64,000 bases of DNA from Chloroflexota bacterium. GTDB taxonomy: Bacteria > Chloroflexota > Anaerolineae > UBA1429. The notes under the pieces were generated by a model. It saw only the letters and a program-made list of their open reading frames with translations. It was not told the origin of the DNA and ran no database searches. A program made the position numbers and the translations under genes. The stretch spans positions 24,654 through 88,653 of the forward strand of contig JAJFUJ010000127.1 in assembly GCA_021372475.1 (NCBI GenBank). Direction: 5' to 3'. Numbering within the stretch: position 1 is the first letter of the stretch; each line of letters starts with the position of its first letter. Below, one piece after another: positions 4,703 through 60,621 of the stretch.

Positions 4703-6148
4703 ATGGGTGCTCTCCTGAATTTGACGGAAATCCTGGGCGCACTGGCCCCGCACCTGCACCTGGCCGGCGCTGATGAGGTGCTCGTGCGCGGCGTGAGTAT
4801 CGACTCGCGCCAGGTGAACAAGGATTACCTGTTTGTGGCCTTGCGCGGTGAGCGGCGCGACGGCCACGAGTTTGTCGCGCAAGCCTTCCAGAGTGGCGCC
4901 TGCCTGGCACTGACGGAACATCCGCTGGAGGGACTGCCTGCGCTCGATACGTGTGCCGCCCAAGCGCCCGAACGGTTCGACCTGCCGTGCACGCTGGTAG
5001 TGCCGGATACATTAGCCGCGCTGCAGCAAGTCGCAGCAGCGCACCGCAGCCAGTTCAAGGCCATCGAGGTAGTGGGCGTAACGGGTTCGATGGGTAAGAC
5101 CACCGCCAAGGAAGCGATCGCCGCAGTGTTGGCGCAAGGCGGGAGCACGCTCAGGAACGCAGGCAACCAGAATAACGAGATCGGGTTACCCTTGACCCTG
5201 CTGACTATGGAAGCAAGCCACCGCTACGCCGTGCTCGAAATGGGAATGTATGCACTGGACGAGATAGCCCTGCTCTGCCGGCTGGCGCAGCCGCGGGTGG
5301 GCGTGGTGTTGAATGTGGCCCCGATTCACCTGGAACGCCTGGGGAGCATCGAACGCATCGCTCAGGCCAAGGCAGAGCTGGTGCAGGCGCTGCCGGAGGA
5401 CGGCCTAGCGATCCTCAATGGCGATGACCCGCTGGTCGCGCAGATGGCCGGCCTCACCCGCGCACGGACACTCACCTATGGGCTGCAACCGGGCAATATG
5501 TTGTGGGCGAGCGAGGTAATCACGCACGGGCTGGAGGGGATCTCCCTGCAAGTGCATGCCGATCCGCGAGTTTTCCCAGATGTGGAACCCGAGTACATGC
5601 TCAAACTACAGCTTCTGGGCAAGCATGCCGCCTATACCGCCCTGGCCGCGGCTGCGGTGGGGCTTGCCGAAGGTTTGCCATGGACAGCCATTCAGCGCGG
5701 GCTTGAAACGTTGGGCTACGGCTTGCGTCTGGTGCCCGAGCCGGGCATCGGCGGCGTCCTGATACTGAATGACAGCTACAACGCCAACCCGAGCTCCACG
5801 GCAGCCGCGCTGGATGTACTCGCATCGCTGCCTGGCCGGCATATCGCCGTGTTGGGCGATATGCTGGAGCTTGGCTCCGCAGAGCAGAGCGGCCACCGCG
5901 CAGTGGGCGCGCACGCCGCGGCTACGGCCGATATGCTGATTACGCTGGGCATACGTGCTCGTGAGATTGCCGCCGGCGCGCGGGAAGCCGGCATGACGGG
6001 AGCGCTGGTGCATGAATTTATGGCGACGGATGAAATTGTGGCCTATCTCAAACCGCTGCTGCAGCCGGAGGATGTCGTGCTGGTCAAAGGTTCGCGCGTG
6101 ATGGCGATGGAAAAGATCGTGCAAGCGCTACAGGAGCCACCGCAATGA
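4703..6148 (+). CDS. murF: UDP-N-acetylmuramoyl-tripeptide--D-alanyl-D-alanine ligase MurF.
   Basis: GVTGSMGKTTAKEAIAAVL P-loop and the NNEIGLPLTLL motif characteristic of MurF. ATG at 4703; the ORF track starts earlier at 4667, overlapping the ftsI end. Confidence 0.9.
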   Translation: MGALLNLTEILGALAPHLHLAGADEVLVRGVSIDSRQVNKDYLFVALRGERRDGHEFVAQAFQSGACLALTEHPLEGLPALDTCAAQAPERFDLPCTLVVPDTLAALQQVAAAHRSQFKAIEVVGVTGSMGKTTAKEAIAAVLAQGGSTLRNAGNQNNEIGLPLTLLTMEASHRYAVLEMGMYALDEIALLCRLAQPRVGVVLNVAPIHLERLGSIERIAQAKAELVQALPEDGLAILNGDDPLVAQMAGLTRARTLTYGLQPGNMLWASEVITHGLEGISLQVHADPRVFPDVEPEYMLKLQLLGKHAAYTALAAAAVGLAEGLPWTAIQRGLETLGYGLRLVPEPGIGGVLILNDSYNANPSSTAAALDVLASLPGRHIAVLGDMLELGSAEQSGHRAVGAHAAATADMLITLGIRAREIAAGAREAGMTGALVHEFMATDEIVAYLKPLLQPEDVVLVKGSRVMAMEKIVQALQEPPQ

Positions 6149-7125
6149 CACTTGCCCTGCTTTTTGGCGCGATTACCTTCCTGGCGCTGCTGCCATTGGG
6201 GCGCCCGTTGATCCATTGGCTCACCCAGCGCGGCATCGGCAAGCATATCCGCGTGGATGGCCCCGCTCAGCATCAGGTCAAGTCGGGCACGCCGACGATG
6301 GGCGGCATCTATTTTGTCGGCGGCGCGGTCATCGGCAGCCTGGCAGCCGCAGCGCTAGGTCACGAGGAAACGCTGCTGCCGGTCATCGCTGTAGCCGCCT
6401 TTGCAGCGCTCGGCGCGATTGACGATTGGAAAGGCTTGCGCGATGCCAGCGGCGTGGGCTGGCTGGCAAGGTACAAGTTCCCAGTGCAGTGGGGCACGGC
6501 GCTGATTGTCGCGCTGCTCTTGTACTGGCTCACCCCCGAGCACCTGCTGGTGATACCGGGCACAGGCAAGAGCATCGAATTGGGATGGTGGGCGGTGGTG
6601 ATAGCCACGCCGCTTTTGGTTTTTATCAGCAATGCAGTCAATATCTCGGATGGCCAGGACGGCCTGGCGGGCGGGATGAGCGCGCTGGCCTATGCCGCCT
6701 TTGGGTTAGTGGCGCTGATGCGCGGCAATGCAGGATTGACGATTTTCAGCTTTGTCATGGTGGGCAGCCTGTGTGCGTTCTTGTGGTACAACGCGCATCC
6801 GGCCAGCGTTTTTATGGGCGACATCGGTTCCGAGGCGCTGGGAGCTGGTCTGGTAGCGCTGGCGATGCTTACGGGACAATGGATTGTGCTGCTTGTCATC
6901 GCGCTGGTGTTTATCGTCGAGGCGCTCTCGGTCATGCTGCAGGTAAGTTATTTCAAATACACCAAACGGCGCTACGGTGAAGGGCGGCGCATACTCAAGA
7001 TGTCGCCGCTGCACCATCATTTCGAGCTGCTGGGCATCCCGGAAGAGCGCATTACGGTGCGTTTTTGGCTGGCTGCGGCCGTCTGCTGCGCGCTTGGCGT
7101 GGCGCTGGCGGCCTGGGGAGCATAA
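6145..7125 (+). CDS. mraY: Phospho-N-acetylmuramoyl-pentapeptide transferase MraY.
   Basis: 326-aa polytopic membrane protein with the conserved MraY motifs (GTPTMGG..., NAVNISDGQDGLAGG, HHHFEL). Confidence 0.93.
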   Translation: MTLALLFGAITFLALLPLGRPLIHWLTQRGIGKHIRVDGPAQHQVKSGTPTMGGIYFVGGAVIGSLAAAALGHEETLLPVIAVAAFAALGAIDDWKGLRDASGVGWLARYKFPVQWGTALIVALLLYWLTPEHLLVIPGTGKSIELGWWAVVIATPLLVFISNAVNISDGQDGLAGGMSALAYAAFGLVALMRGNAGLTIFSFVMVGSLCAFLWYNAHPASVFMGDIGSEALGAGLVALAMLTGQWIVLLVIALVFIVEALSVMLQVSYFKYTKRRYGEGRRILKMSPLHHHFELLGIPEERITVRFWLAAAVCCALGVALAAWGA

Positions 7126-8567
7126 TGTTGACGGCAGAAGAATTGAAAGGGCTGCGGGCAGTGATTATCGGGGCGGCGCGCGAAGGCAGCGCCCTGGCGC
7201 ACTATCTGGCTGCCTGCGGAACACACGTGACGCTGTGCGACCGCAAGGATGACGCCGCGCTCGCGCAGCGCCTGAGCGGTCTGGCGGCCGAGGGCGTGCG
7301 CCTGGCGCTGGGCGCGGATCCCTCCGATGAGTTGCTCGCCCAGACGGATGTGCTGTTCATCAGCCCGGCGGTGCCGCGCAATGCCCCGCTAGTGGAAAAG
7401 GCGCGCGCCCTGGGGCTGCCGATTTCGAGCGAGCCACGCCTGTTCACCCAAGTATGCCCGGCGCCGGTCGTCGGCATCACCGGGTCGAGCGGCAAGACGA
7501 CCTGCACCGCATTGGTCGGCGAGATGTGCCGTTTGAGCGGCATGAACGCGTGGGTGGGCGGCAACATCGGCATCCCATTGACCGAACGCCTGCTGGAACG
7601 CCCCTGGCCGGATGCGGCCGTGATGGAGCTCTCCAGCTTCCAGCTCGAGGTCTTCACGCCGACTTACCAGGGGGCAGCGGCCGAGCGTAAGCGCAGCGCG
7701 GCCTCGCGGGTTATCTCGCTGGCCGGATGGAGCCCGCATGTCGCAGTAGTGACCAATATTACGCCGAATCACTTGGATAGGCACGCCGATATGGCGGAAT
7801 ACGCCGCGGCTAAATACAGCATCATGGCTTTCCAGAGCGAGGATGATTGGCTCGTGCTGAACGCGGATGATGCCGCAACGACGCCCTGGGCTGACCAGGC
7901 GCGCGGCAAGCTGCTCCGCTTTAGCCTGACGGATGAACCGGCGCAAGGCGCGTACCTGCGCGGCAGTGAGCTGGTCGTCCGCTGGAACGGTGTTGAGCAG
8001 GTCATCTGCCGGCCGGATGAGGTGCGGCTGCGCGGCAGCCACAATCTGGCCAATATTTTAGCCGCAAGCTGCGCGGCGCTGGCCGCCGGAGCGGGAACAG
8101 AGGCCGTCAGCCAGGCAGCGCGCACATTCAGCGGTGTGCCGCACCGCATGGAGGTGGTGCGAAGGCGCAGCGGCGTCCTGTGGGTTAACGATTCCATCGC
8201 GACTTCACCCGAACGGGTTTGCGCGGCGCTGCGCTCTTTTAATGAACCGCTGGTGCTGCTGGCCGGCGGGCGCGACAAGCATCTGCCGTGGGAGGAATGG
8301 GCCCAGTTGGCCGGGCAGCACGCCCGTGTGGTGATTGCCTTCGGCGAGGCAGTGCCGATTATCGAACGCGCCCTATTGACGGCCAGCCAGGCAGCCGCTG
8401 TGGAACTGCAAAAGGTGGCCAACCTGGAGCAGGCCGTGGCATTGGCAGCCGAGGTCGCTCAGCCCGGCGAGGTGGTGCTGCTCAGCCCGGGCGGCACAAG
8501 CTTTGATGCATATGCGGATTTCGAGGAACGCGGTCAGCATTTCCGCGACCTGGTGGCCGCGCTGTGA
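7125..8567 (+). CDS. murD: UDP-N-acetylmuramoylalanine--D-glutamate ligase MurD.
   Basis: N-terminal Rossmann region (VIIGAAREGSAL) and the P-loop ITGSSGKTTCT. ATG overlaps the mraY stop (TAATG). The ORF track begins at an upstream in-frame start, 7065. Confidence 0.9.
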   Translation: MLTAEELKGLRAVIIGAAREGSALAHYLAACGTHVTLCDRKDDAALAQRLSGLAAEGVRLALGADPSDELLAQTDVLFISPAVPRNAPLVEKARALGLPISSEPRLFTQVCPAPVVGITGSSGKTTCTALVGEMCRLSGMNAWVGGNIGIPLTERLLERPWPDAAVMELSSFQLEVFTPTYQGAAAERKRSAASRVISLAGWSPHVAVVTNITPNHLDRHADMAEYAAAKYSIMAFQSEDDWLVLNADDAATTPWADQARGKLLRFSLTDEPAQGAYLRGSELVVRWNGVEQVICRPDEVRLRGSHNLANILAASCAALAAGAGTEAVSQAARTFSGVPHRMEVVRRRSGVLWVNDSIATSPERVCAALRSFNEPLVLLAGGRDKHLPWEEWAQLAGQHARVVIAFGEAVPIIERALLTASQAAAVELQKVANLEQAVALAAEVAQPGEVVLLSPGGTSFDAYADFEERGQHFRDLVAAL

Positions 8568-8577
8568 GGTTGCTGCA

Positions 8578-9690
8578 ATGACACTGTTGAATATGAAAGG
8601 CAGGCTCTCTCCCACCAGCATCCGTCTGCTGTTGGTGGTGTTTGCCTTGCTGGCGCTTGGGCTGGTGATGGTTTACAGCGCCTCCTACGGCTATGCATTT
8701 GGCGAATACAGCTCCACCAAAGACGATCTCACCTATTACTTTAAGCGCCAGTTTGTGGCGGCTGTCATTGGGGTCGTGTTGATGGCATTTCTGACCCTTT
8801 TCGACTACCACAACCTGCCGCGCTTTGCGACATGGATCTTGGGCGGGACATTGCTCATCATCTTGCCCACCGCGTTTTTCGGGCGCTGGTTGTTCGGCTC
8901 GTGGGGACAACTGGCTGAATTGGCCAGGCTGTTGGCGATTACCTACCTAGCCATCTGGCTGGCGCAAAAAGGGGATGAAATCCGCAGCCTGAAGCTCGGT
9001 TTCCTGCCGTATGGGTTGCTGGTAGGGTTCATCACCGGCCTGATAATACTGCAGCCCGATATTTCGACGGCTATATTGATGTTTGTGACGGCGATGGCAA
9101 TGGTATTCGTAGCCGGCGCCGATATCCGCCAGATTGTCCCGACCATCTTTATCATCATCCCGCTGGTCATCGGCGTCGCACTGCTCTTAAAGCACGGCGA
9201 TCGTATCTTCTTGTGGTTATCTACGGCGTTCAAGGGTGTGGCCGACCAGGATTCGCAGGTGGCGCAGTGCCTGATAGCGTTCAACCGGGGAGGATTTTTC
9301 GGGGTCGGCCTCGGGCAAAGCGAACTGAAATACGTTATTTACGCTGCCCATTCGGACGGCATCTTTGCTATCATCGGCGAGGAGCTGGGATTCCTCGGCG
9401 CAACAGTAGTTGTTATTCTGTATTCGCTGTGGACCTGGTGGGGGCTCAAGGTAGCCCGTGAGGCGCGCGACCCGCTGGGACGTATGCTGGCTACTGGGCT
9501 GACCCTCTGGGTAACGTTGGGCGCGGTGATGCACATCGCCGGGACGCTCAACGCTATCCCCTTCACCGGCTCGGTGCTGCCGTTTATATCCAGCGGCGGC
9601 TCGTCGCTGCTCACGACTTTGGCTTCGGTAGGAATCATCCTCAGCATCACGCGCGCTGAACCGGCATCGGCGCAGGAGAGCCTGCGATGA
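8578..9690 (+). CDS. ftsW: Peptidoglycan glycosyltransferase FtsW (SEDS family).
   Basis: About 10 TM helices with SEDS motifs (...DFHNLPRF..., ...AHSDGIFAIIGEELGFLG...). The start at 8578 (MTLLNMKGRL) is chosen to avoid overlap with murD. Confidence 0.85.
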   Translation: MTLLNMKGRLSPTSIRLLLVVFALLALGLVMVYSASYGYAFGEYSSTKDDLTYYFKRQFVAAVIGVVLMAFLTLFDYHNLPRFATWILGGTLLIILPTAFFGRWLFGSWGQLAELARLLAITYLAIWLAQKGDEIRSLKLGFLPYGLLVGFITGLIILQPDISTAILMFVTAMAMVFVAGADIRQIVPTIFIIIPLVIGVALLLKHGDRIFLWLSTAFKGVADQDSQVAQCLIAFNRGGFFGVGLGQSELKYVIYAAHSDGIFAIIGEELGFLGATVVVILYSLWTWWGLKVAREARDPLGRMLATGLTLWVTLGAVMHIAGTLNAIPFTGSVLPFISSGGSSLLTTLASVGIILSITRAEPASAQESLR

Positions 9691-10808
9691 GAGTAATGGT
9701 AACAGGCGGCGGCACGGGCGGCCATGTGTACCCGGCTCTGGCGGTAGTGGATGAACTAAGCAGCAACGGCATCTGGCGCACGAGCCGCAACGAGATTGCC
9801 TGGGTGGGCGTAGCCGGCAACATCGAGCAGGAAATCATCCAACGCGCCGGCCTGCGCTTTTATGCTGTAAGCTCGGGCGCGCTGCGCGGCGCCAACCCGC
9901 TGCAGGCGCTCAGCAGCATCGCGCACCTCGTGCAGGGGCGCCGGCAAGCATTCGGGTTCATACGCGAGTTCAAACCCGAGGTAGTGTTAGCGACAGGCGG
10001 TTATGTTTCTGCGCCGCTGGTGCTGGCTGCCCACAAGTCGAGGGTGCCGGTACTAATCCTGCTGCCCGATATCGAGCCGGGCATGGCCGTGCGTTATCTC
10101 GCGCGCATGGCCCAAAAGGTTACGGTATCCTTCCCCGAGGTGGCACGCTATTTCCAGCCCGGGAAGGTGCTGGTGACGGGATATCCGGTGCGCCCGGTGC
10201 TCTTTAGCCTGACCAAGTATCAGGCGCGTGCGGAGCTGCAGCTTCATCCGGAGGGAACGGTGCTGTTGGTGCTGGGGGGCAGCCGCGGAGCGCGTTCAAT
10301 CAATAACGCCGTCAGCGCCATGCTGCCTAAAATCCTGCCGTTAGCTGATATTGTGCATCTGTGCGGCCGCGAGGACTATCCGGCGCTGCAAGAACAGCGC
10401 AAGGCGTTACCGCACACGCAACAAGCGCGTTATCAGCTTTATCCTTATCTGCACGACCAGATGCCCGCCGCCCTGGCTGCGGCCGATCTGGTTGTGGCGC
10501 GCGCCGGCGCGGCTACGCTGGCCGAGTTCCCGGCCGTGGGGCTCCCGGCCATCCTGGTGCCCTACCCCTTCGCGGGCAGGCATCAGCAGATGAACGCTGA
10601 CTTTATGGCGTCGCATGGTGCCGGCCTGGTGCTGGCGGACGACGCCCTGGCTGAGCATCTTGAACCGACGGTGTTGGATCTGCTGCAGGATGCATCTCGC
10701 CTGCGAGAGATGAGCCGGGCAGCCCGAGCCATGGCGATGCCCCATGCTGCCCATGCGGTTGCAGAAGCCTTGCAAAACCTGGCCAAAGGAGGCAAAGATG
10801 CCCGCTGA
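9687..10808 (+). CDS. murG: UDP-N-acetylglucosamine--N-acetylmuramyl-(pentapeptide) pyrophosphoryl-undecaprenol GlcNAc transferase MurG.
   Basis: MRVMVTGGGTGGHVYPALAV N-terminal G-loop and a GT-B fold with the C-terminal GAATLAE motif. Confidence 0.9.
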   Translation: MRVMVTGGGTGGHVYPALAVVDELSSNGIWRTSRNEIAWVGVAGNIEQEIIQRAGLRFYAVSSGALRGANPLQALSSIAHLVQGRRQAFGFIREFKPEVVLATGGYVSAPLVLAAHKSRVPVLILLPDIEPGMAVRYLARMAQKVTVSFPEVARYFQPGKVLVTGYPVRPVLFSLTKYQARAELQLHPEGTVLLVLGGSRGARSINNAVSAMLPKILPLADIVHLCGREDYPALQEQRKALPHTQQARYQLYPYLHDQMPAALAAADLVVARAGAATLAEFPAVGLPAILVPYPFAGRHQQMNADFMASHGAGLVLADDALAEHLEPTVLDLLQDASRLREMSRAARAMAMPHAAHAVAEALQNLAKGGKDAR

Positions 10809-39053: not shown

Positions 39054-40004
39054 TTAGCGGTTGCTCTTGGTACGTCTAAAGCGCACACGTATTTCGGAGC
39101 GGTAGAATCCGCGCACGGCCAGCAGGATGATGCTGATGCCCAGCACGATGAAAAGCAGACCACGCAGCGGACGGGGGATGAACTGCAGCGTTAACCAGTA
39201 GATATAATCTGGGAATGGCTGCACGCGATAGAGGTGCGTCAGCAAATAAGCGATGCCCAGTGTTACCCCGACGGCGCCAAGGATAAAAAAGCTGAGCCAG
39301 CGTGCCAGGTCCCTGAGCTTGATTTTCGACTCGAGCTGCTTGTTGCGCAGGGCTGCCAACCTAGCCGAGGTGACGGTGAGGGTAGGCAGTGAGGTCGAGG
39401 CAATGCCCAGATTCTCAGGCAAGGGGATGGCGAGCTGCGCCGAGCGTGCATGCCCGAGATTTATGGCAATTTCCTGTTCGACGGCGATATAATTGACGGC
39501 CGTCGTCAGGTCAGAAGCAATCGGAAAGTCTTTGCGCCTGGGAGCCAGCCCGACGACATCCACAATCTGGCGGCCGTCCAGGATCATCAGTGGGCGCACA
39601 TCCGCGCTATAAGCGGTCTCAATTTCTCGCTCCTGGTCGGCGATGACAAAGCAAGCCGCCAAATCCAAGTCGAGCTGCATGGCGGGCATCCACAGCATGC
39701 CCGGGTAACTGCCCCAGCAGCGGCAGTTGTCATCCGCGCTGTGCGGGCAGTTGATGACGGCATCCAGGCGGCCGCCACCCGCCTCTACCTGCTTAACCAG
39801 CTCGGCTTGCGTTTTCGAGAGCCCTTCTGCTTCATCGGGCTCATGCGCAACGGCATCCAGGATAATCAAAAGCTGCTCTGGCCCGCTCAGGCGGCGCAGA
39901 GCTTCCAGCGTGGCAGGAGTCAACCGCCAACCTTCATCAGGCGCGGATGGGTTAATATGGCTGTCACGCAAGATGCAGTTGGTATGGATGAATATCGCTT
40001 TCAA
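39054..40004 (-). CDS. HAD-IIIA-like phosphatase domain (GmhB-like) fused to a C-terminal membrane segment.
   Basis: N-terminal AIFIHTNCILRD (HAD motif I-like DxD variant) and ...LIILDAV.... Two C-terminal hydrophobic helices (WLSFFILGAVGVTLGIAYLL; LLFIVLGISIILLAV). Confidence 0.45.
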   Translation of the reverse strand: MKAIFIHTNCILRDSHINPSAPDEGWRLTPATLEALRRLSGPEQLLIILDAVAHEPDEAEGLSKTQAELVKQVEAGGGRLDAVINCPHSADDNCRCWGSYPGMLWMPAMQLDLDLAACFVIADQEREIETAYSADVRPLMILDGRQIVDVVGLAPRRKDFPIASDLTTAVNYIAVEQEIAINLGHARSAQLAIPLPENLGIASTSLPTLTVTSARLAALRNKQLESKIKLRDLARWLSFFILGAVGVTLGIAYLLTHLYRVQPFPDYIYWLTLQFIPRPLRGLLFIVLGISIILLAVRGFYRSEIRVRFRRTKSNR

Positions 40005-45873: not shown

Positions 45874-46087
45874 GGCTATCGCGATGGCAACCGTGCACAT
45901 CCCGACCTGGCTCTACCGCCAATGCGACGCGGATTTCACCCGCGACGTGCCGGCTGGGGGCTGCGGCGAGCGGCATAAGGAAGAGGGATTATTGTGGCGC
46001 ACGGCCATCTCGTATGGCTTTGTCTATCACCTGGTGGATATCCTGGCAGCGCTTGCTGGTATTAGCTCTCCGTTGGAGGCGCATCAT

Positions 46088-46589
46088 CATGACCCGTTAC
46101 CGCAGCCAAGCCGAGTTAACGGCTGCTATTATCGGCTCGCGGCGGCGGCTGGAACGCACCCTGGACGGGATTGCCCCCGCTGAGCTGCCGCGGCCGGGCG
46201 TCGTCGGCGATTGGAGCGTCAAGGACCTGTTGGCGCATCTGGCTGCGTGGCAGCGGCTGCTGCTCTACTGGTATGCGCAAGGCAAAACCGGCGCTGTGCT
46301 CGCACCGAACCCCACGGGGATGTCGCGCCGGGCTATAGATATGCTGAATGCCGAGATCTATCAAACCCACCACAACGACTCGCTGGCCGCAGTGCAGATA
46401 GAGTACCACAGCGCTTACGCCGCAGCGTTGGAATTGGTACAAAGCCTCAGCGAGGACGAACTCTACACGCCCGGCCATTATGCCTGGACCGGCAAGTATT
46501 TGTTAGCCGACTATGCGGCGGCCAATACCTGCCAGCATGATGACTGGGCCAATCGCATGCTGCACAACTGGCTGCGCTCGCGTGCTTAG
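46088..46589 (+). CDS. ClbS/DfsB-family (DinB_2-like four-helix bundle) protein.
   Basis: ...VKDLLAHLAAWQRLLLYWY...TGKYLLADYAAANTCQHDDWA... resembles the ClbS/DfsB/DUF1706 pattern. ATG at 46088; the ORF track starts at 46014. Confidence 0.5.
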
Positions 46590-47401
46590 GATTTGTCTAT
46601 ACGAAATACCAGTTCGCTGGGCCACAAGTAGCGACGTACGCGCCAGGATTCGCCAGCCAGCAATCCCCTGAAATGTGCCTCATAGTTTACCGGCATGCCG
46701 CGCTTGGCGCCACCCAGACTGTGCGCCGGGAAAGAGACCAGTACATGCTCCGTGGGCAGGCGCACCAAAAGACCCCGTGCGGCTGCCGGATCGAGCTGCT
46801 CCAGGCAGGGCAGCGCCTTCATCAGCAAGGCCACCTGCACCGGTTCTGCCGGCATGCTGCCGAGTACATCCATAGCCAAGCCCAACGCGTTATAGCCCAA
46901 CAAGCACAGCGCACGCTCGAGAAATGCCGCCAGATCGGTATATACGTCGCAAGCGATGTAGCGCGCGCCTTTGGCAAGCGGCATCCATGAGCAGGCGAGA
47001 GGATTCAAACCGCAGGCGACATCCAGCACTGATGTGATCGGCGCCAGGTCGGCCAGGCATGCGCGGTACAGCTCGGGCAGAATCGGCATGCGCTCGCGGG
47101 TCGAAGCATGGCCGGCGAGGATCGTTCGACATACCTCGCGGACGGCCTCCGGACCGCTTTCTGCGGCACGGGAAAGCTCTTCAAGCCAGCAGGCATAGCG
47201 CGGCGAACTCGGCCAGTATGCTCCGGCCACCTGGTGCAGCTTGCGGCGCGCCGCGTGCTCTGCTTCCCGCAGATTGCCGCGCGCAACCCATTCGCGCCCC
47301 GCAACGCGGCGCACCAGCGCGGGCGTCAGGCTGCGGTATTTGGCGCTCGCCAGGATAGCCGCGGTGATGCGCTCCACCTCGTCAGCCAGTGGGCTGTTCA
47401 T
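46586..47401 (-). CDS. ArmA/Rmt (FmrO) family 16S rRNA (guanine1405-N7)-methyltransferase homolog (aminoglycoside-resistance-type methyltransferase).
   Basis: By-eye alignment to the ArmA/RmtB family: RRKLHQVAGAYWPSSPRYACWLEEL vs KKKLHQIWGSYYSAYPNWDKLLKK; LDVACGLNPLACSW vs LDFGCGFNPLALYQW; VSFPAHSLGGAKRGMPVNYEAHFRGL vs ISFPIKSLSGKEKGMEENYQLWFESF. 271 aa is typical for the family. Confidence 0.65.
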   Translation of the reverse strand: MNSPLADEVERITAAILASAKYRSLTPALVRRVAGREWVARGNLREAEHAARRKLHQVAGAYWPSSPRYACWLEELSRAAESGPEAVREVCRTILAGHASTRERMPILPELYRACLADLAPITSVLDVACGLNPLACSWMPLAKGARYIACDVYTDLAAFLERALCLLGYNALGLAMDVLGSMPAEPVQVALLMKALPCLEQLDPAAARGLLVRLPTEHVLVSFPAHSLGGAKRGMPVNYEAHFRGLLAGESWRVRRYLWPSELVFRIDKS

Positions 47402-48599
47402 GCCGGATGCGCTCCATCAAACGGTTCACAAATGCGATATTATGTAATGTTGCGTAACGGTCGTACAGGCCGTCGCCGATTTTGAACAGGTGGTGCAGCC
47501 AGGCACGCGAATAGCTGCGGCAGCACGGGCACCTACAGCCTGCCTCCAGCGGACGATTGTCGCGCCGGTGGATATCGTCGCCGATGTACAGGTGGCTGTA
47601 CCACTGCATCTGGCGCGCCAGCGGGATACCCTCCTCAGCCTGCCAGATGAGCAGTCGGCCATGGCGCGCGTCGCGAGTGGGCATCGCGCTATCGAAGAGG
47701 GTATAACCCAGCTCGGCACACTCAAGGATATGGCGGGGATGGCCAATCCCGAGCGCGTGCAAGGGATACTCTGCCGGCACGAGCTCGCGCACATAAGCAA
47801 TGATATCGTGCAGCAGCTCGCCCTGGCTATCCAGTGGCCAACCGCCCAAGCCGTAACCGTCAAAGCCAATCGCCAGCAGCTCCTCGGCGCAGATACGGCG
47901 CAACTCATACTCCCCGCCCCCCTGGATGACGGCCAGCAGCAGTGGCCGCCCGCCGCTAGATTTCCGCGCGCTCATCAGCCGTTCGAACTCGCGCTTGCCG
48001 CGTTTTGCCCAGGCAATGGTGCGCTGCACAGCGGTGCGTTGTTCAACCAGCGGCGCATCGGCGTGGGTACACTCATCCAGGCAGATAACAGCATCAGCGC
48101 CGAAAGCCACCTGGTGCTCCACCACCTTTTCAGGCGTCAGGCGCAGCGGCCTGGCCCCCGCCTCGCCCTTGAACACTAATCCCTGGTCGGTAATGGAACC
48201 GAGGGACGGGTTCTGGTGGATGAGCGAATAAGCCTGAAATCCGCCTGAATCAGTAACGATGGGGCGCTGCCAGGCGAACATGGCGTGCAGCCCACCGGCT
48301 GCTTTGAGCGTCCCTGGGCCTGGGCGCTGCAGCAGATGGAAGAGGCTCATCACCAGCGCCGGTACGCCCAGCTCCTGCAGGGCGACGCCGTCGACAGCGC
48401 GCACGACGCCACGCGTGGCATCCGGCAGAAAAGCCGGCAGACTTAGATTGCCATGCGGCGTGCGGAGCTCGTTTATGCCAGCCATACTACTTCCGTCGAT
48501 GAAATGTATGTCATTATAAGGTAGAGTAACGCCTTGCTCAACCTGAATGTGCCGACCATACTGCGCCTCCAACATACTATATGTGATTACCTTTTCCAT
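47382..48599 (-). CDS. tgt: tRNA-guanine transglycosylase family protein (Tgt-like; queuine tRNA-ribosyltransferase or a divergent paralog).
   Basis: TDSGGFQAYSL catalytic motif; PLHALGIGHPRHILECAELGYTLFDSAMPTRDARHGRL (second catalytic Asp in FDSA); zinc site CRCPCC...H. Its 3' end overlaps the Rmt-like gene by 20 nt. Confidence 0.7.
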   Translation of the reverse strand: MEKVITYSMLEAQYGRHIQVEQGVTLPYNDIHFIDGSSMAGINELRTPHGNLSLPAFLPDATRGVVRAVDGVALQELGVPALVMSLFHLLQRPGPGTLKAAGGLHAMFAWQRPIVTDSGGFQAYSLIHQNPSLGSITDQGLVFKGEAGARPLRLTPEKVVEHQVAFGADAVICLDECTHADAPLVEQRTAVQRTIAWAKRGKREFERLMSARKSSGGRPLLLAVIQGGGEYELRRICAEELLAIGFDGYGLGGWPLDSQGELLHDIIAYVRELVPAEYPLHALGIGHPRHILECAELGYTLFDSAMPTRDARHGRLLIWQAEEGIPLARQMQWYSHLYIGDDIHRRDNRPLEAGCRCPCCRSYSRAWLHHLFKIGDGLYDRYATLHNIAFVNRLMERIRHEQPTG

Positions 48600-48621
48600 A
48601 TCCAGCCCCTTGAAGAGTCAG

Positions 48622-48633
48622 TACTATATAGTA
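48622..48633. promoter_or_regulatory. Perfect 12-bp palindrome TACTATATAGTA in the tgt/marR divergent intergenic region; candidate MarR-type operator.
   Basis: Read directly; centred about 30 bp upstream of the MarR ATG (48657). Confidence 0.3.
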
Positions 48634-48656
48634 TCATTGGCATCAAGTAGGATACG

Positions 48657-49105
48657 ATGCAACGCAAGACGCAGGGTAGCTACCTCATAGCGCAGATCGA
48701 ACAGATTCAGGGGCGGGTCTTTAACCGACTGCTGGAGGAGTACGGCATCGGGGCATTTAACGGCGCTCAGGGGCGCATCCTGTATGTGCTTTGGCAGCAA
48801 GATAACCTGCCGATTAAAGAGATCGCACGCCCCACCAGCCTGGCCAAGACGACACTCACCAGCATGCTCGAACGCATGGAACAGAGCGGCAACATCCGCC
48901 GCAGCGCCAAGTGACTGTCAACCTCAGTGAGCAGGCGCAAGCCTTGCGCACTGATTATGATGCTGTGTCGCTCCGGATGAGCGAGTTATTCTACGAGGGC
49001 TTTACGGACAAAGAAATCAATGTACTGGAAGCGATGCTAATCCGTATCCTGGCCAATCTACGAAACACAGAACAGGCAAATAAACCAGAAAAACCAAAGG
49101 AGTAA
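48657..49105 (+). pseudogene. MarR-family transcriptional regulator interrupted by a -1 frameshift at about 48911-48914 (two ORFs of 85 and 64 aa that together make a normal 149-aa MarR), or a sequencing error.
   Basis: The N-terminal ORF carries the winged-HTH (...LPIKEIARPTSLAKTTLTSMLERMEQSGNIRRSAK*). The C-terminal ORF (TVNLSEQAQAL...EAMLIRILANL) continues the MarR wing/dimerisation helix in the adjacent frame. TGA at 48912-14; the next frame begins at GTG 48911. Confidence 0.5.
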
Positions 49106-49106
49106 C

Positions 49107-49691
49107 ATGACGAAAGTCGCGATGCCGATCTCGAACCATTTTTGCCCGCAGACTCTCTTTCTATATGGTACCTATCGTGAGGATGGCACGCCCAATTTCG
49201 GGCTGTTCTGCTGGATTAGTTACTTCTGGGAAGATGAGCTGGGGGTGATGGCCTGTCTTGGCGGTCAGAAACTAACCAAAGACCGCATCCGCCAGACAGG
49301 AGAGTTCTCGGCCAACCTGGTGATAGAAGCGTTGCTTCCCCTGGCGGATGCTTGCGGCAATATCCCGGGCACAGATCCCGCCAAGCGCGCCATTCAACCA
49401 GATACCATACCTGGCCAGGTTCTTCATGTCCCTATTCTAAACGAAAGCCCCTGGAGCTTTGAACTACAAGTAATACGTGAAATACCTCTGCAGGGCAGCG
49501 ATATCTTTCTCTGCAAGATCCGCAACATCCTGGCGGATGAACGGCTCGCGGATGAGACCAAAACGATTCAGGAACGTCTGCAATCGATTGCTCCCATCTC
49601 AACCACATGCCAAACCTATTTTTCTTTCACGGGAAAGTCGCTCGGGATGTGGGGAGAGCCACAACAGGCTTATCGCAAGCAGGCTGGGTGA
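49107..49691 (+). CDS. Flavin reductase-like (FMN-binding split-barrel) family protein.
   Basis: ...LFLYGTYREDGTPNFGLFCW... resembles the flavin reductase/flavoredoxin domain N-terminal pattern. 194 aa. Confidence 0.6.
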   Translation: MTKVAMPISNHFCPQTLFLYGTYREDGTPNFGLFCWISYFWEDELGVMACLGGQKLTKDRIRQTGEFSANLVIEALLPLADACGNIPGTDPAKRAIQPDTIPGQVLHVPILNESPWSFELQVIREIPLQGSDIFLCKIRNILADERLADETKTIQERLQSIAPISTTCQTYFSFTGKSLGMWGEPQQAYRKQAG

Positions 49692-57392: not shown

Positions 57393-58017
57393 TATGATTA
57401 CGCTCGCACGTTTTCCAGTGCTGTTCCTTGCCATCATCCTGATGTATCTGCCGGGAGCGACGCCCAAGCTCATTGCAGCGCCAGTGGTTATCGTGTTGAT
57501 CTTGATGGACACTGTCGATGGCTGGGTAGCGCGAGCGCGTAAGGAAACCTCGCTGCTGGGCAGCGTGCTCGATATCATGGCCGACCGCTCCGTCGAAGTG
57601 GCGCTATGGATTTGCTTCGCCCACCTGCGCCTGGTTCCAGTAGTCATTCCGCTCATTTTTGCGGTGCGCGGCGTCATCGTCGATTCGTTGCGCAGCTTTT
57701 CAGTGGGCAAAGGGATGGCTCCCTTTGAGGGAATGCGTTCGCGCGCCGGACGTTGGTTGGTAGGCAGCCCATGGATGCGCAGCACCTACGGCATCAGTAA
57801 AGCCTTCTCGTTTACGGGATTGGCGCTGACTAACGCCTTGTACACCATGGCAAAGACAGGAGGCGCATCAACCAGTGCGGCAGCTACGAGCCACACTATT
57901 TTTACCATAACCAGTTGGGTAGCACTGGCGCTGTGCTTGCTGCGCGGTATCCCTGTCGTGGTGGAAGCTTTTATCTGGCTGCGCGAATACGATCATAAAC
58001 CGGACCTAGAGCCGTAA
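57385..58017 (+). CDS. CDP-alcohol phosphatidyltransferase family protein (PgsA-like).
   Basis: Signature D-G-x2-A-R...G-x3-D-x3-D (LMDTVDGWVARARKETSLLGSVLDIMADR); multi-TM. ATG at 57385 (MANMITLARF...); the ORF track starts at 57256 inside ribF. Confidence 0.7.
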   Translation: MANMITLARFPVLFLAIILMYLPGATPKLIAAPVVIVLILMDTVDGWVARARKETSLLGSVLDIMADRSVEVALWICFAHLRLVPVVIPLIFAVRGVIVDSLRSFSVGKGMAPFEGMRSRAGRWLVGSPWMRSTYGISKAFSFTGLALTNALYTMAKTGGASTSAAATSHTIFTITSWVALALCLLRGIPVVVEAFIWLREYDHKPDLEP

Positions 58018-60621
58018 CAGCTTTTCGCGCGCCTGACGCAAGTAGCGCAGTGCCGCATCAAAACCGGTCTCTTTACGCGAGAGAGCGATAAGGTGTTCGG
58101 TTTGCGCCACCAGTTTGGTCAGCTTGCGGCTTTCGGCATGTTCGCCCTTGTGGGTCAGCTCCTCGGCCTGGCGCTGTACGCGCTGCTTGAGCGCATTTAC
58201 GGCTTTGAGCTCATTCTGCAGCAGCCCCAATGCATCGCGCGATTGCGACTCGCCCCGTTCATACAGCTTGACGAGTTCCGTACAAGCGCCAAGGGTACGC
58301 TGCCAGGCGTCCAGCAGCGCTGGCAGGCTGTCGGCGGATTGGATGCCACGCTGCAGCTCCGTCACCTGCGCCCAGGCGCGCTCCGCATCGATATTCCAGG
58401 ATAGATTAGGCCAAAAGCTGGCAGCGCTAATCTCTTGCAGGCGGTCGCGTAGCGCCTCGGCCTGGGCATAACGCTGCTGATAGGCTTTATCCAGTTCCTT
58501 GAGCGCCAGCCTCCCCTCGACGATGTCGCGGTGTAGCTCCACCATGCGCTGTTCCAGGTCGGCGCTGCGCCGGCCGAGCGTCTGGCTGAGTATATAGGCA
58601 TTTTCGCGGTTGCCTTCGGCGGTCTGCTGCCAATCAGCGTAATCGGCCTTGATTTTCAGCACCAACGGCTGGACGACGGCCAGGTTCGAGATATCCAGGC
58701 GATCCAACTGCGCCCACGAGCGCGCGAGCTGCCGGCGCTCGTCCTCGTACTGCAACTGCAGTTGTTTGAGATGCGTGGCATGGGCGGTGCTCACTTCTTC
58801 GAGCTGCCGTTTGAGATAGGGCAGCCCAAAGCGCAATGCTTGATCGTACTCCGTCTGGCTTGGATCGAGCAGCTTGGCCGCTTCCTGGCGAATTTCGATA
58901 GCCAGCTTGACCAGCTTTTCGCGCAGTTCCACCAGCATGGAGCCCGAAAGCTGCTCGACGACCGGCAAATCCACGTAAAGCAGCAGCGCGACATCCTGTT
59001 CCACCTGCAGGCGCTGCTGCTCGATTTGCTCCAGCAATTCCCTGAGGCGGGCGATGCCCGTGCGCACATACTCGGTCCCGCGCTCCGCATACTGCAGCGC
59101 ATCGTAGATATCATCCAACTGCGTCTCGATAAATAGGCCGTCGCGCGTAAAATCCGCCGGCAGGCAGCTCAAGGCCAATTCGGCCTCGCGCTGCGAAAGC
59201 TCGATATTGCGCAGCAGTTCAGCTACCGCGGGCATATGCTTGGGATAGGCTTCGAGCTTTTCTGCGGCGAACTGCAGTTGACGGCGGTAAGGTGAGATAT
59301 CCCCGCGTTTGAGTGCGCTCCACAAGGCATCCACTGCTTGTGCGCGCTCCTCTATGGAAGCGAGCCGTTCATGGACCTCCGCTGCCTGCTGGCGAACCTG
59401 GCCGCACTGCTCCTGGCAGTGCGCCAACGCGGAACGGGTAGCCTGCTGACGTATGTCGCTGGCGGCAGCCAGGGCCGCAGCGGCTTCGTCCAGAACTGCA
59501 CGGGTAAAATCGGCGTGGATATTGATATAGCGCTGCTGCAGCTCATCCACCGCCGCTCCGGCCGCGTTGACCACGTCCGCCGCTGTATTCAGTTCAGCGT
59601 CCACCGCGGCGATTGAACCCTCCAGCCCGGCCAGGTCCTCCGTCAGCAGCGCAGCGCGCTCATCAAAAGCAGCGGCTTGGGCGTTTACCGTGCGATAGGC
59701 ATCGCGGGTACGCTGCCCCAGCCGCGTCTTGAGGTCATCGCGCGAGGCGGTTAAGCCCAGCAGCACCTCGTCGATATCCTGCTCGCGGAAGTTGCGGCGC
59801 TGCACAGCGCGCCAGCGTTCCTGCAAACGAGCGAGCGTTTCTTCCGCCTGCAGCAGAGCATCTTCGGCTGCGCGACGAAGGGCAGTGAGCGCGTCCAGAT
59901 CCTCGGCCAGGTGCGCGATGCCGCCGGCCAACGCGGCGTTCGGTTCGGCTGCACGCTCGAGCACAGCCGGCGCGATTCCGCCTTCGGCATCCAGCTCGTT
60001 CTGCAGCTTGTCAGCCTGAGCGCGTAAAACGCTAATGCCGCTCGAAAAGGCTTCCAACCCGACAGTGCCGGCAGAGCGTTCCTGCTCCAGGCAGGCCGAG
60101 AGCTGATCGAGCTCATAGCGGCGCAGCGCAAGCTGAGCGCGCATATCCGAGGGGATATCCAACACCTTCTGCCGCAAGGCTGCCAAGGCTTCGAGCGTGG
60201 TTGTCGCATCTCCCAGCAATTCGGCTAGATGACGCACTTGCTGCCACTGGCTGTAGGCAGCGCGCGCGCGCTTCCAACAGCGCAGGGTGATAACCTGGAA
60301 GAATGAGCACTCGGACAGCGCCGCGCAGCGCAGCGGTTCGGCCAGAACGCCGGACTCGTTCAGTTCCATCTGCAGGCGTGCGAGCTGTTCATCGGCAGCC
60401 TCCACCAGCGGTTGGTAAGGGCCGAAGCGCGGCTGCGCGCACCAAAATGCTTGATGCTCCGCCTGCGCCAACGTTACGCGGTCGTAATACGAGAGCACCG
60501 CCGCACGCGAGCGATATGAATGCCGCAGCGACCAGCCCAATGCTGCGGCCGCCAGCCAGGGCAGCACGCAGGCTAGCAGGTACAGCTCCAGCACGATCAG
60601 CAGAGGCTGCCACCACCTCAC
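58006..60621 (-). CDS. Very large (871 aa) hypothetical protein: an N-terminal transmembrane anchor followed by about 800 residues of predicted coiled coil (EzrA-like architecture).
   Basis: N-terminal hydrophobic helix (WWQPLLIVLELYLLACVLPWLAAAALGW). The rest is dominated by heptad-like A/L/E/R/Q-rich segments (e.g. LQAEETLARLQERWRAVQRR; LEQIEQQRLQVEQDVALL). No enzymatic motif recognised. Confidence 0.5.
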   Translation of the reverse strand: MRWWQPLLIVLELYLLACVLPWLAAAALGWSLRHSYRSRAAVLSYYDRVTLAQAEHQAFWCAQPRFGPYQPLVEAADEQLARLQMELNESGVLAEPLRCAALSECSFFQVITLRCWKRARAAYSQWQQVRHLAELLGDATTTLEALAALRQKVLDIPSDMRAQLALRRYELDQLSACLEQERSAGTVGLEAFSSGISVLRAQADKLQNELDAEGGIAPAVLERAAEPNAALAGGIAHLAEDLDALTALRRAAEDALLQAEETLARLQERWRAVQRRNFREQDIDEVLLGLTASRDDLKTRLGQRTRDAYRTVNAQAAAFDERAALLTEDLAGLEGSIAAVDAELNTAADVVNAAGAAVDELQQRYINIHADFTRAVLDEAAAALAAASDIRQQATRSALAHCQEQCGQVRQQAAEVHERLASIEERAQAVDALWSALKRGDISPYRRQLQFAAEKLEAYPKHMPAVAELLRNIELSQREAELALSCLPADFTRDGLFIETQLDDIYDALQYAERGTEYVRTGIARLRELLEQIEQQRLQVEQDVALLLYVDLPVVEQLSGSMLVELREKLVKLAIEIRQEAAKLLDPSQTEYDQALRFGLPYLKRQLEEVSTAHATHLKQLQLQYEDERRQLARSWAQLDRLDISNLAVVQPLVLKIKADYADWQQTAEGNRENAYILSQTLGRRSADLEQRMVELHRDIVEGRLALKELDKAYQQRYAQAEALRDRLQEISAASFWPNLSWNIDAERAWAQVTELQRGIQSADSLPALLDAWQRTLGACTELVKLYERGESQSRDALGLLQNELKAVNALKQRVQRQAEELTHKGEHAESRKLTKLVAQTEHLIALSRKETGFDAALRYLRQAREKLLRL

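Follow-up and report, generated by a model that had tools for sequence, protein, structure and literature searches.

An FmrO/Rmt-family 16S rRNA methyltransferase gene paired with a distinct clade of tRNA-guanine transglycosylase genes in Chloroflexota, in a module shared with clinical rmt genes

N7-methylation of G1405 in 16S rRNA (m7G1405) is usually viewed as a resistance mark of producers and pathogens. Uncharacterised Chloroflexi homologues already stand in the tree of m7G1405 methyltransferases of Nosrati et al. 2019 (bioRxiv 10.1101/712810, Fig. 1A), and the Kp13 genome paper records 'a putative tRNA ribosyltransferase CDS' upstream of rmtG, uninterpreted (PMC3904158). In canonical Tgt, the tRNA-guanine transglycosylase (TGT) of the queuosine (Q) pathway, a Leu231/Ala232 peptide switch and Glu235 handle guanine versus prequeuosine-1 base (preQ1) (PMC3660597). 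Here we analyse a minus-strand pair of overlapping genes, encoding a divergent TGT and an FmrO/Rmt-family methyltransferase (tgt-rmt), in 64,000 nucleotides (nt) of DNA from a Chloroflexota bacterium (assembly GCA_021372475.1, contig JAJFUJ010000127.1, positions 24,654 to 88,653; the whole of this stretch is called the window). The favoured explanation, at a probability of roughly 0.6, is an intrinsic 16S rRNA m7G1405 methyltransferase co-expressed with the Q-pathway Tgt of its host, in an ancient cluster of decoding-centre modification genes. The features that carry it are:

46586-47401, minus strand: homologue of FmrO/Rmt-family 16S rRNA (guanine1405-N7)-methyltransferases, 271 amino acids (aa), of the Chloroflexota 'F1' orthologue group
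47382-48485, minus strand: TGT-family gene of the 'PDAT/GGWPxD' clade, 367 aa from its probable start (longest open reading frame, ORF, to 48599, 405 aa)
47382-47415, minus strand: gene junction, with overlap of the tgt stop and methyltransferase start, plus GGAG

Both ORFs (46586-47401 and 47382-48599, the latter the 405-aa longest ORF) and their 20-nt overlap (47382-47401) are present, and all motifs that an earlier note, made from the sequence of this stretch, had quoted for the two proteins were found in them. Its assignment of the 271-aa product to the FmrO/Arm/Rmt family held when profile searches were run: PF07091 (FmrO) matches residues 19-262 with 164.2 bits (gathering score 27; E = 5e-48), and the protein aligns end to end with solved G1405 methyltransferases, best with Sgm (PDB 3lcu; residues 2-270 versus Sgm 9-281, full length, 159 bits), then RmtB (residues 14-270 versus 10-251, 115 bits) and RmtC (82 bits). 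The two-domain build of the solved members, helical N1/N2 plus a class I methyltransferase domain, is retained, with the motifs KLHQVAGAY, LDVACGLNPLA and SFPAHSLGGAKRGMPVNY. The database record with an identical protein is named 'MAG: 16S rRNA methyltransferase [Chloroflexi bacterium]' (MAG, metagenome-assembled genome), and no characterisation or phenotype of Chloroflexi FmrO-family proteins was found in the literature searched.

Residues of RmtC with roles in docking, base positioning and binding of S-adenosylmethionine (SAM) (PMC10288597; bioRxiv 10.1101/712810) were projected onto the 271-aa protein and 75 Chloroflexota orthologues. The docking/distortion residues K20, Y21, R50 and H54 of RmtC correspond to K21, Y22, R52 and H56; Tyr60 and Lys204, whose equivalents hold the flipped base and contact N7 (PMC10288597), correspond to Y62 and K195; the SAM-binding residues S107, R111 and D160 to S100, R104 and D152; and M245 to M236. 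Equivalents of H54, S107, R111, D160, K204 and M245 are the same in 75/75 orthologues, and those of K20, Y21, R50 and Y60 are retained in 69-75 of the 75, with Y or F at the Y60 site in all. The SAM-binding residues of Sgm are R108, D156 and D182, and D178 of the window protein is nearly invariant among orthologues. The LPCLE motif and the SLGG..GM..NY loop match the producer enzyme Sgm, which is also the nearest solved relative in rough neighbour-joining (NJ) trees. In these the Chloroflexota clade is monophyletic and lies about as far from Sgm as the validated enzymes (Sgm, RmtB, RmtC) lie from one another. From its sequence, the 271-aa protein is most likely an active SAM-dependent methyltransferase.

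The upstream gene encodes a TGT-family protein (PF01702, 294 bits, E = 1.8e-87; TIGR00449 superfamily, 285.7 bits). Translation probably begins at the internal Met at 48485, for a protein of 367 aa, and the 405-aa ORF is probably over-extended, because homologues are 358-370 aa long and a sigma70-like promoter candidate lies inside the 5' extension. The protein carries the motifs DSGGFQ, LDEC, FDSA, CRCPCC...H and AFLPDATRGVVRAV. Alignment with the E. coli and T. maritima enzymes bore out the picture given earlier of a TGT with its catalytic Asp residues and zinc site kept and its pocket divergent. Equivalents of Z. mobilis D102, D156 and D280 and the CxCxxC...H site are retained (at least 90% conserved in 69 rmt-paired TGTs), as is the PTRDARHG motif, while canonical GGLAVGE has become GGWPLD(S), with GGWPLD at least 90% conserved in the clade, PVGT..VK has become PDAT..VR, and 15-20 residues are inserted ahead of the zinc motif. 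Leu231-Ala232-Val233-Gly234-Glu235 of the preQ1 pocket and peptide switch is thus replaced by W-P-L-D-S; Ala232 to Pro loses the backbone NH facing N7/the 7-substituent, and a Trp and an Asp are gained. A search of 1.84 billion representatives followed by a motif scan of the matches showed that the PDAT..VR and GGWPxD signatures co-vary and define a discrete group with no continuum, and in an NJ tree about 105 PDAT/GGWP TGTs split from about 65 canonical ones. This type is the common TGT of Chloroflexota.

The clade looks like a Q-pathway enzyme, judged by gene context: in a Caldilineae MAG (L028, 74-5383) ruvB, a glutamine amidotransferase-like gene, a small ORF, queA, a PDAT-type tgt and rmt follow one another, i.e. 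the classical ruvB-queA-tgt arrangement with rmt appended (QueA 487 bits versus a cut-off of 324), and yhhQ, for a queuosine-precursor transporter, is a recurrent neighbour, within 6 kb of the module in 10 loci. Neither queA nor yhhQ lies in the 64-kb window, the window and 1.0 Mb of related loci yielded no second TGT, and an Rfam search found no preQ1 riboswitch near yhhQ or tgt across 11 loci. A eukaryote-like queuine enzyme was considered and rejected: the TGT keeps Cys158 and has Leu rather than Gly at position 233, and therefore does not use the eukaryotic solution. The queA gene of L028 favours preQ1 as base. Sphaerobacter thermophilus is a member of the Chloroflexota. It reportedly lacks de novo Q synthesis and salvages queuine (PMC9881137), so the base used may differ between lineages.

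The pair is a vertically inherited module in Chloroflexota. In relatives at 68%, 55%, 52% and 41% identity, among them the cultured Thermosporothrix hazakensis, the TGT gene stands directly upstream of the methyltransferase gene in three flanking contexts, and in those with 55-68% identity the pair lies, as in the window, between phoU and nusA. When one genome per species was scanned, at least 566 genomes had a relative; the best 80 of these are nearly all Chloroflexota and span at least six classes or orders, and 77 loci were informative. Pairing was counted by tblastn and not from ORF-based maps, as such maps miss some TGT genes where a longer antisense ORF covers them, the genomes being GC-rich. 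A TGT gene is upstream on the same strand in 70/77 informative loci and directly adjoining in 68, with stop/start overlap in about 55 of the 68 adjacent pairs; seven of the 77 have no adjacent TGT in the locus DNA examined, and in at least four of these rsmI is directly upstream. Pairwise TGT and methyltransferase distances, computed on trimmed alignment columns, co-vary (r = 0.70, Mantel p = 0.001).

All flanking ORFs were clustered and representatives scanned against NCBIfam. The recurrent neighbours are RsmI (16S Cm1402; 31 loci), an RsmF-like m5C enzyme (best match C1407; 18 loci), RsmE (m3U1498; 9 loci), YhhQ (8-10 loci) and RlmN (8 loci), and queA adjoins tgt in L028 only. The common order is rsmI-tgt-rmt-(second rmt paralogue)-rsmF-rsmE-yhhQ, reduced to rsmI-rmt where tgt is missing. 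The neighbourhood centres on the ribosomal decoding centre and is probably an ancient cluster of genes for its modification. Coordinated expression of such enzymes is plausible, since ArmA reportedly hinders RsmI from methylating C1402, and translational accuracy is reported to change when G1405 is methylated (PMC3923132).

Many Anaerolineae encode a further FmrO-family paralogue ('F2') directly 3' of the first; it shares 28-38% identity with the window protein (L052, 6812-7630; L073, 6792-7613; L034, 5624-6448; L060, 6780-7586; and 13 more). F2 keeps the SAM-site, H54, Y60 and K204 equivalents; replacement of LPCLEQ by xHRxExR and loss of the SLGG..GM loop suggest that it may act on a different target nucleotide or substrate state. 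The rsmI-tgt-rmt order was also seen in MAGs labelled Chthonomonadaceae, Chthonomonadales and Poribacteria (L071, L079 and L083); either these MAGs are mis-binned or the module has spread outside Chloroflexota.

Clinical plasmids carry the same type of TGT gene. In a tblastn search of PLSDB with the window TGT, the best matches (40-46% identity) were on resistance plasmids, compared with 34-35% for enterobacterial chromosomal tgt. Plasmids pKP13f and pEc09 carry rsmH-tgt-rmtG followed by a 98-aa N-terminal RsmI fragment and an IS91-like element, which on pKP13f (rmtG region, L087 4060-7126) cuts the RsmI fragment (IS, insertion sequence); 2964TF carries tgt-rmtD2 and then an IS91-family element, and p12100-NDM carries tgt-metallophosphoesterase-rmtB2. 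All three TGTs, beside rmtG, rmtD2 and rmtB2, have the PDAT/GGWPL signature. Upstream of rmtD, Doi et al. (2008) reportedly noted a gene for a tRNA ribosyltransferase.

Metagenome assemblies contain the sequences nearest to the rmtG-linked TGT, at identities of up to 86%; those with names are Christensenellales, Eubacteriales and Clostridia MAGs, and three Clostridia chromosomal contexts have the order tRNA synthetase-(folC)-rsmH-tgt-rmt-rsmI. Clostridia loci L091-L094 match the plasmid rmtG region at 78-80% (RsmH), 77-87% (RsmI fragment) and 84-86% (TGT) identity, the methyltransferases at only 49-58%, so the exact progenitor of rmtG/rmtD was presumably a different species of this Christensenellales-like group. 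The NF000466 (Rmt_gen) cut-off of 250 bits is passed by the enzymes of L091 (295 bits), L093 (277) and L096 (339).

L096, a 232-kb metagenome contig labelled Eubacteriales, carries rsmH-tgt-rmtF...rsmI at 6001-9981. Its TGT (P0459) is found on hundreds of contigs, and its RmtF has 98.4% aa identity to PDB 6pi9 (NF000113, 594 bits versus a cut-off of 500). L096 7066-8122 is matched at 97% nucleotide identity by 115 Klebsiella plasmids, this span holding rmtF and only 16 nt of tgt; RmtF therefore works without a linked tgt. The L096 locus looks like the native home of clinical rmtF or a near relative of it. Partial tandem duplicates of the rmtF 3' end lie just downstream of rmtF (7845-8275), one with ILPDTLSVRDRF as in PDB 6pi9 where the intact chromosomal rmtF has VLPDTLTIRDRF.

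Validated G1405 methyltransferases are thus natively encoded in a tgt-rmt module, which is found in two phyla and on both main branches of the Rmt tree. It is the unit captured by ISCR (insertion sequence common region)/IS91 elements and the source of rmtF, rmtG, rmtD and rmtB2. The statement in the earlier note that a TGT-methyltransferase link had no known precedent is overtaken by adjacency in 68/77 Chloroflexota genomes, in gut Clostridia and on rmtG, rmtD2 and rmtB2 plasmids, and the neighbour of rmtG was already in print without comment (PMC3904158).

In the window, the 20-nt overlap and a GGAG at 47415-47412, within the tgt 3' end and 10 nt before the methyltransferase ATG, suggest translational coupling, and we infer that tgt-rmt is a translationally coupled operon. 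The remaining features near the pair are:

48513-48541, minus strand: candidate sigma70-like promoter for tgt-rmt, TTGAGC-17-TATAAT, 10/12 consensus matches
48574-48633, no strand assigned: divergent regulatory region with a perfect palindrome and a related half-site
48657-49105, plus strand: MarR-family regulator gene split by a frameshift near 48911, 85 aa + 64 aa (PF01047, TIGR04472)
49107-49691, plus strand: flavin-reductase-like gene (PF01613, 39.7 bits), 3' of the MarR gene
46014-46589, plus strand: DUF1706/DinB-family gene (PF08020, 100.6 bits), converging on the methyltransferase gene with a 4-nt overlap of 3' ends

The TTGAGC-17-TATAAT site is a putative promoter by its consensus match. 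The frameshifted MarR gene and the perfect palindrome described earlier were both recovered. The MarR frames 48657-48914 and 48911-49105 match positions 2-78 and 90-139 of TIGR04472 ('radical SAM mobile pair system' regulator), the best NCBIfam match of the gene; as the two frames match separate parts of the model, the frameshift is real in the assembly. The perfect 12-nt palindrome TACTATATAGTA (48622-48633) overlaps a plus-strand promoter-like site (48610-48637), and the related half-site ATACTATAT is at 48574-48582. Since these two related palindromic boxes sit in the common promoter region, the regulator might also have touched tgt-rmt expression. The MarR/flavin-reductase pair (48657-49691), between tgt and nusA, is a lineage-specific insertion; it is missing from relatives L001-L004, where nusA directly faces tgt. 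The DinB-family gene is a variable neighbour outside the module, with other genes in its place in relatives.

The window is an ordinary, housekeeping stretch of chromosome. The surroundings of the pair run pstSCAB-phoU, the DinB-like gene, tgt-rmt, the MarR/flavin-reductase insertion and nusA-ylxR-infB-rbfA-nrnA-truB-ribF. The window also contains a dcw cluster including rsmH (1520-2464), a P-type ATPase gene and sugar kinase/isomerase genes, and no rsmI within its 64 kb. GC content, 0.626 in the region of the pair and 0.52-0.63 elsewhere in the window, is unremarkable and gives no hint that the pair is foreign, and an Rfam scan of the window returned one tRNA and nothing else. Two window ORFs, 58006-60621 (minus strand, 871 aa) and 39054-40004 (minus strand, 316 aa), have no Pfam match at E <= 1e-5.

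The favoured explanation, an intrinsic m7G1405 methyltransferase co-expressed with the host Tgt, builds on family membership, conserved residues, conserved gene order and the module common to RmtF, RmtG, RmtD2 and RmtB2. The N-terminal domain of the methyltransferase would dock on the mature 30S subunit, and the enzyme would methylate G1405 at N7 after flipping it from helix 44. The modification would be a native, constitutive feature of the decoding centre in this organism, with a block to 4,6-disubstituted deoxystreptamine aminoglycosides (kanamycin, gentamicin, amikacin) as a by-product. The upstream protein would most likely be the tRNA-guanine(34) transglycosylase of the organism's Q pathway, with its pocket for the 7-substituent remodelled from GGLAVGE to GGWPLD and that for the preceding nucleotide from PVGT..VK to PDAT..VR. 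The two genes would be expressed together as the core of a cluster composed of rsmH or rsmI, tgt, rmt and then rsmI, rsmF or rsmE, and the reason for their linkage may be co-regulation of A-site rRNA and anticodon modifications.

Several points weigh against this explanation. The 271-aa protein scores 197.4 bits with the NCBIfam equivalog NF000466, under its cut-off. The RmtC R241 site, R or K in 64/75 Chloroflexota orthologues, is Ala in the window protein and its nearest relatives, with K233/R234 two to three residues on, and R241E abolished the activity of RmtC (PMC10288597); the K236 site is His, and variable across the clade. A literature search found neither an rRNA modification map nor aminoglycoside minimum inhibitory concentration data for any Chloroflexota. 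The TGT scores 287.9 bits with the equivalog TIGR00430, below the cut-off of 306.75 (plasmid and Clostridia members of the clade, 296-301), and has lost Leu231, Ala232, Val233 and Glu235, which serve canonical preQ1 handling. Co-regulation alone, moreover, gives no obvious account of a dedicated TGT clade, conservation in two phyla and gene fusions.

The low NF000466 score and the changed R241 and K236 sites, with identity to validated enzymes of only about 30-38% and the family diversification represented by F2 in some Chloroflexota, would also fit a diverged methyltransferase that has another 16S nucleotide or another RNA as target, or reduced activity, and confers no aminoglycoside resistance. 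We regard this as unlikely, given that the G1405/N7 residues (Y62, K195), the h45/h44 docking residues (K21, Y22, R52, H56) and the SLGG..GM..NY loop and LPCLE motif of Sgm are all kept, that the distances among Sgm, RmtB and RmtC are as large as those to the Chloroflexota clade, and that synteny links the window protein to RmtF, RmtG and RmtD.

It is quite unlikely that the TGT and methyltransferase are functionally coupled, working in one pathway or complex on the same RNA to make an undescribed modification, for example with a TGT that acts on the 30S decoding centre instead of or besides tRNA, or that needs, recognises or exchanges N7-methylated guanine. Such coupling would suit the adjacency kept in Chloroflexota and Clostridia despite differing flanks, the stop/start overlap in most pairs, the discrete clade of linked TGTs with co-varying changes at the N7/7-substituent site and the PVGT..VK segment, and the fact that the other recurrent cluster members are all 16S decoding-centre enzymes. 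It would also suit natural fusions: TGT+FmrO, with the TGT domain N-terminal, in P0245 and, from an independent contig, P0391 (628 aa), and RsmI+TGT in P0261 (710 aa, one contig). All three come from low-GC, Lys-rich organisms, and the FmrO part of P0245 has Arg at the H54-equivalent site. These fusions could be hints of physical association or accidents of overlapping genes, which can yield fusions trivially. However, RmtF, RmtG, RmtD and RmtB are proven resistance enzymes whose hosts have an ordinary tgt, and only 16 nt of the linked tgt remain on the 115 rmtF plasmids, so that the methyltransferase needs no linked TGT. Seven of the 77 informative loci have the methyltransferase and no adjacent TGT in the locus DNA examined (rsmI directly upstream in at least four), and the TGT keeps its catalytic residues and PTRDARHG motif and is linked to yhhQ in 10 loci. 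An rRNA-directed TGT in particular is demoted by the ruvB-queA-tgt synteny of L028 and the tgt-less rmtF plasmids. A mechanistic tie of the PDAT/GGWPxD TGT to G1405 N7-methyltransferases, the pair making or editing an undescribed RNA modification, is distinctly improbable; its TGT could be a 30S decoding-centre transglycosylase or one that recognises or exchanges N7-methylguanine, and a base that is methylated and positively charged would fit well with Pro in place of the N7-facing NH and with the Trp and Asp gained.

A producer self-resistance gene or a recently acquired or mobilisable one (a reservoir allele), two of the three options offered by the earlier note of which intrinsic resistance stands, is highly improbable: family membership, Sgm as closest solved relative and the adjoining MarR-type regulator would fit it, but no aminoglycoside biosynthetic genes were found in the 64-kb window and no transposase, IS flank or mobile element near the pair, the phoU-nusA position is kept in relatives at 55-68% identity, the pattern across the phylum is vertical, the best identity to the methyltransferases of 1585 Rmt-bearing plasmids is 35-37%, the protein scores far under the cut-off of every allele-specific NCBIfam model, and the MarR gene is frameshifted and part of a lineage-specific insertion. 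Chloroflexota have hundreds of orthologues of the window gene, which, at no more than 37% identity to plasmid Rmts, is no source of clinical alleles.

If the methyltransferase is active, many Chloroflexota and some gut Clostridia would have m7G1405 as a native modification of their rRNA, and the carrier lineages would therefore be intrinsically resistant to kanamycin/gentamicin-class drugs. The module is an origin context for clinical 16S rRNA methyltransferases: rmtF is at 97% nucleotide and 98.4% aa identity to a chromosomal gene from a common lineage of gut Clostridia, and rmtG retains rsmH, tgt and rsmI neighbours from that context. The module links an enzyme of the tRNA anticodon to a methyltransferase of A-site rRNA in two phyla, and occasionally the two are fused; the TGT clade with its rebuilt base pocket is an uncharacterised variant of a heavily studied enzyme.

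Among described systems, the window protein belongs to the Chloroflexi homologue group in the tree of Nosrati et al. 2019; in the literature searched, the tgt linkage, neighbouring rsm genes and second paralogue of this group were not described. Canonical Tgt (Z. mobilis, E. coli, T. maritima) has the same fold family, catalytic Asp102/Asp156/Asp280, zinc site and PTR.AR.G motif as the window TGT, and shares queA and yhhQ links with its clade relatives. The window TGT differs in its remodelled motifs, insertion and sub-cut-off score, with identity of about 35-41%, and in being joined to an rRNA methyltransferase gene.

The producer enzyme Sgm, and by family FmrO, GrmA and KgmB, has the same two-domain architecture, with LPCLE and SLG.R.KGM..NY motifs in common, and Sgm is the best solved-structure match both of the window protein (159 bits) and of the clade profile (242 bits). 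In contrast to the producer genes, the window gene is outside any aminoglycoside cluster and is linked to tgt and rRNA-modification genes; producer self-resistance methyltransferase genes are not known to be linked to tgt.

The acquired RmtF, RmtG, RmtD2 and RmtB2 are of the same family and have the same PDAT/GGWPxD-type TGT partner, often with an overlap of 8-11 nt. The order rsmH-tgt-rmtG-(rsmI fragment) of pKP13f mirrors that of Clostridia chromosomes, and rsmI-tgt-rmt of Chloroflexota is similar. The window protein, at about 30-37% identity to the acquired enzymes and under the NF000466 cut-off, belongs to the other of the family's two main branches; unlike theirs, its locus has no IS91/ISCR or IS26 association, and its rsmH is in the dcw cluster, with no rsmI within the 64 kb.

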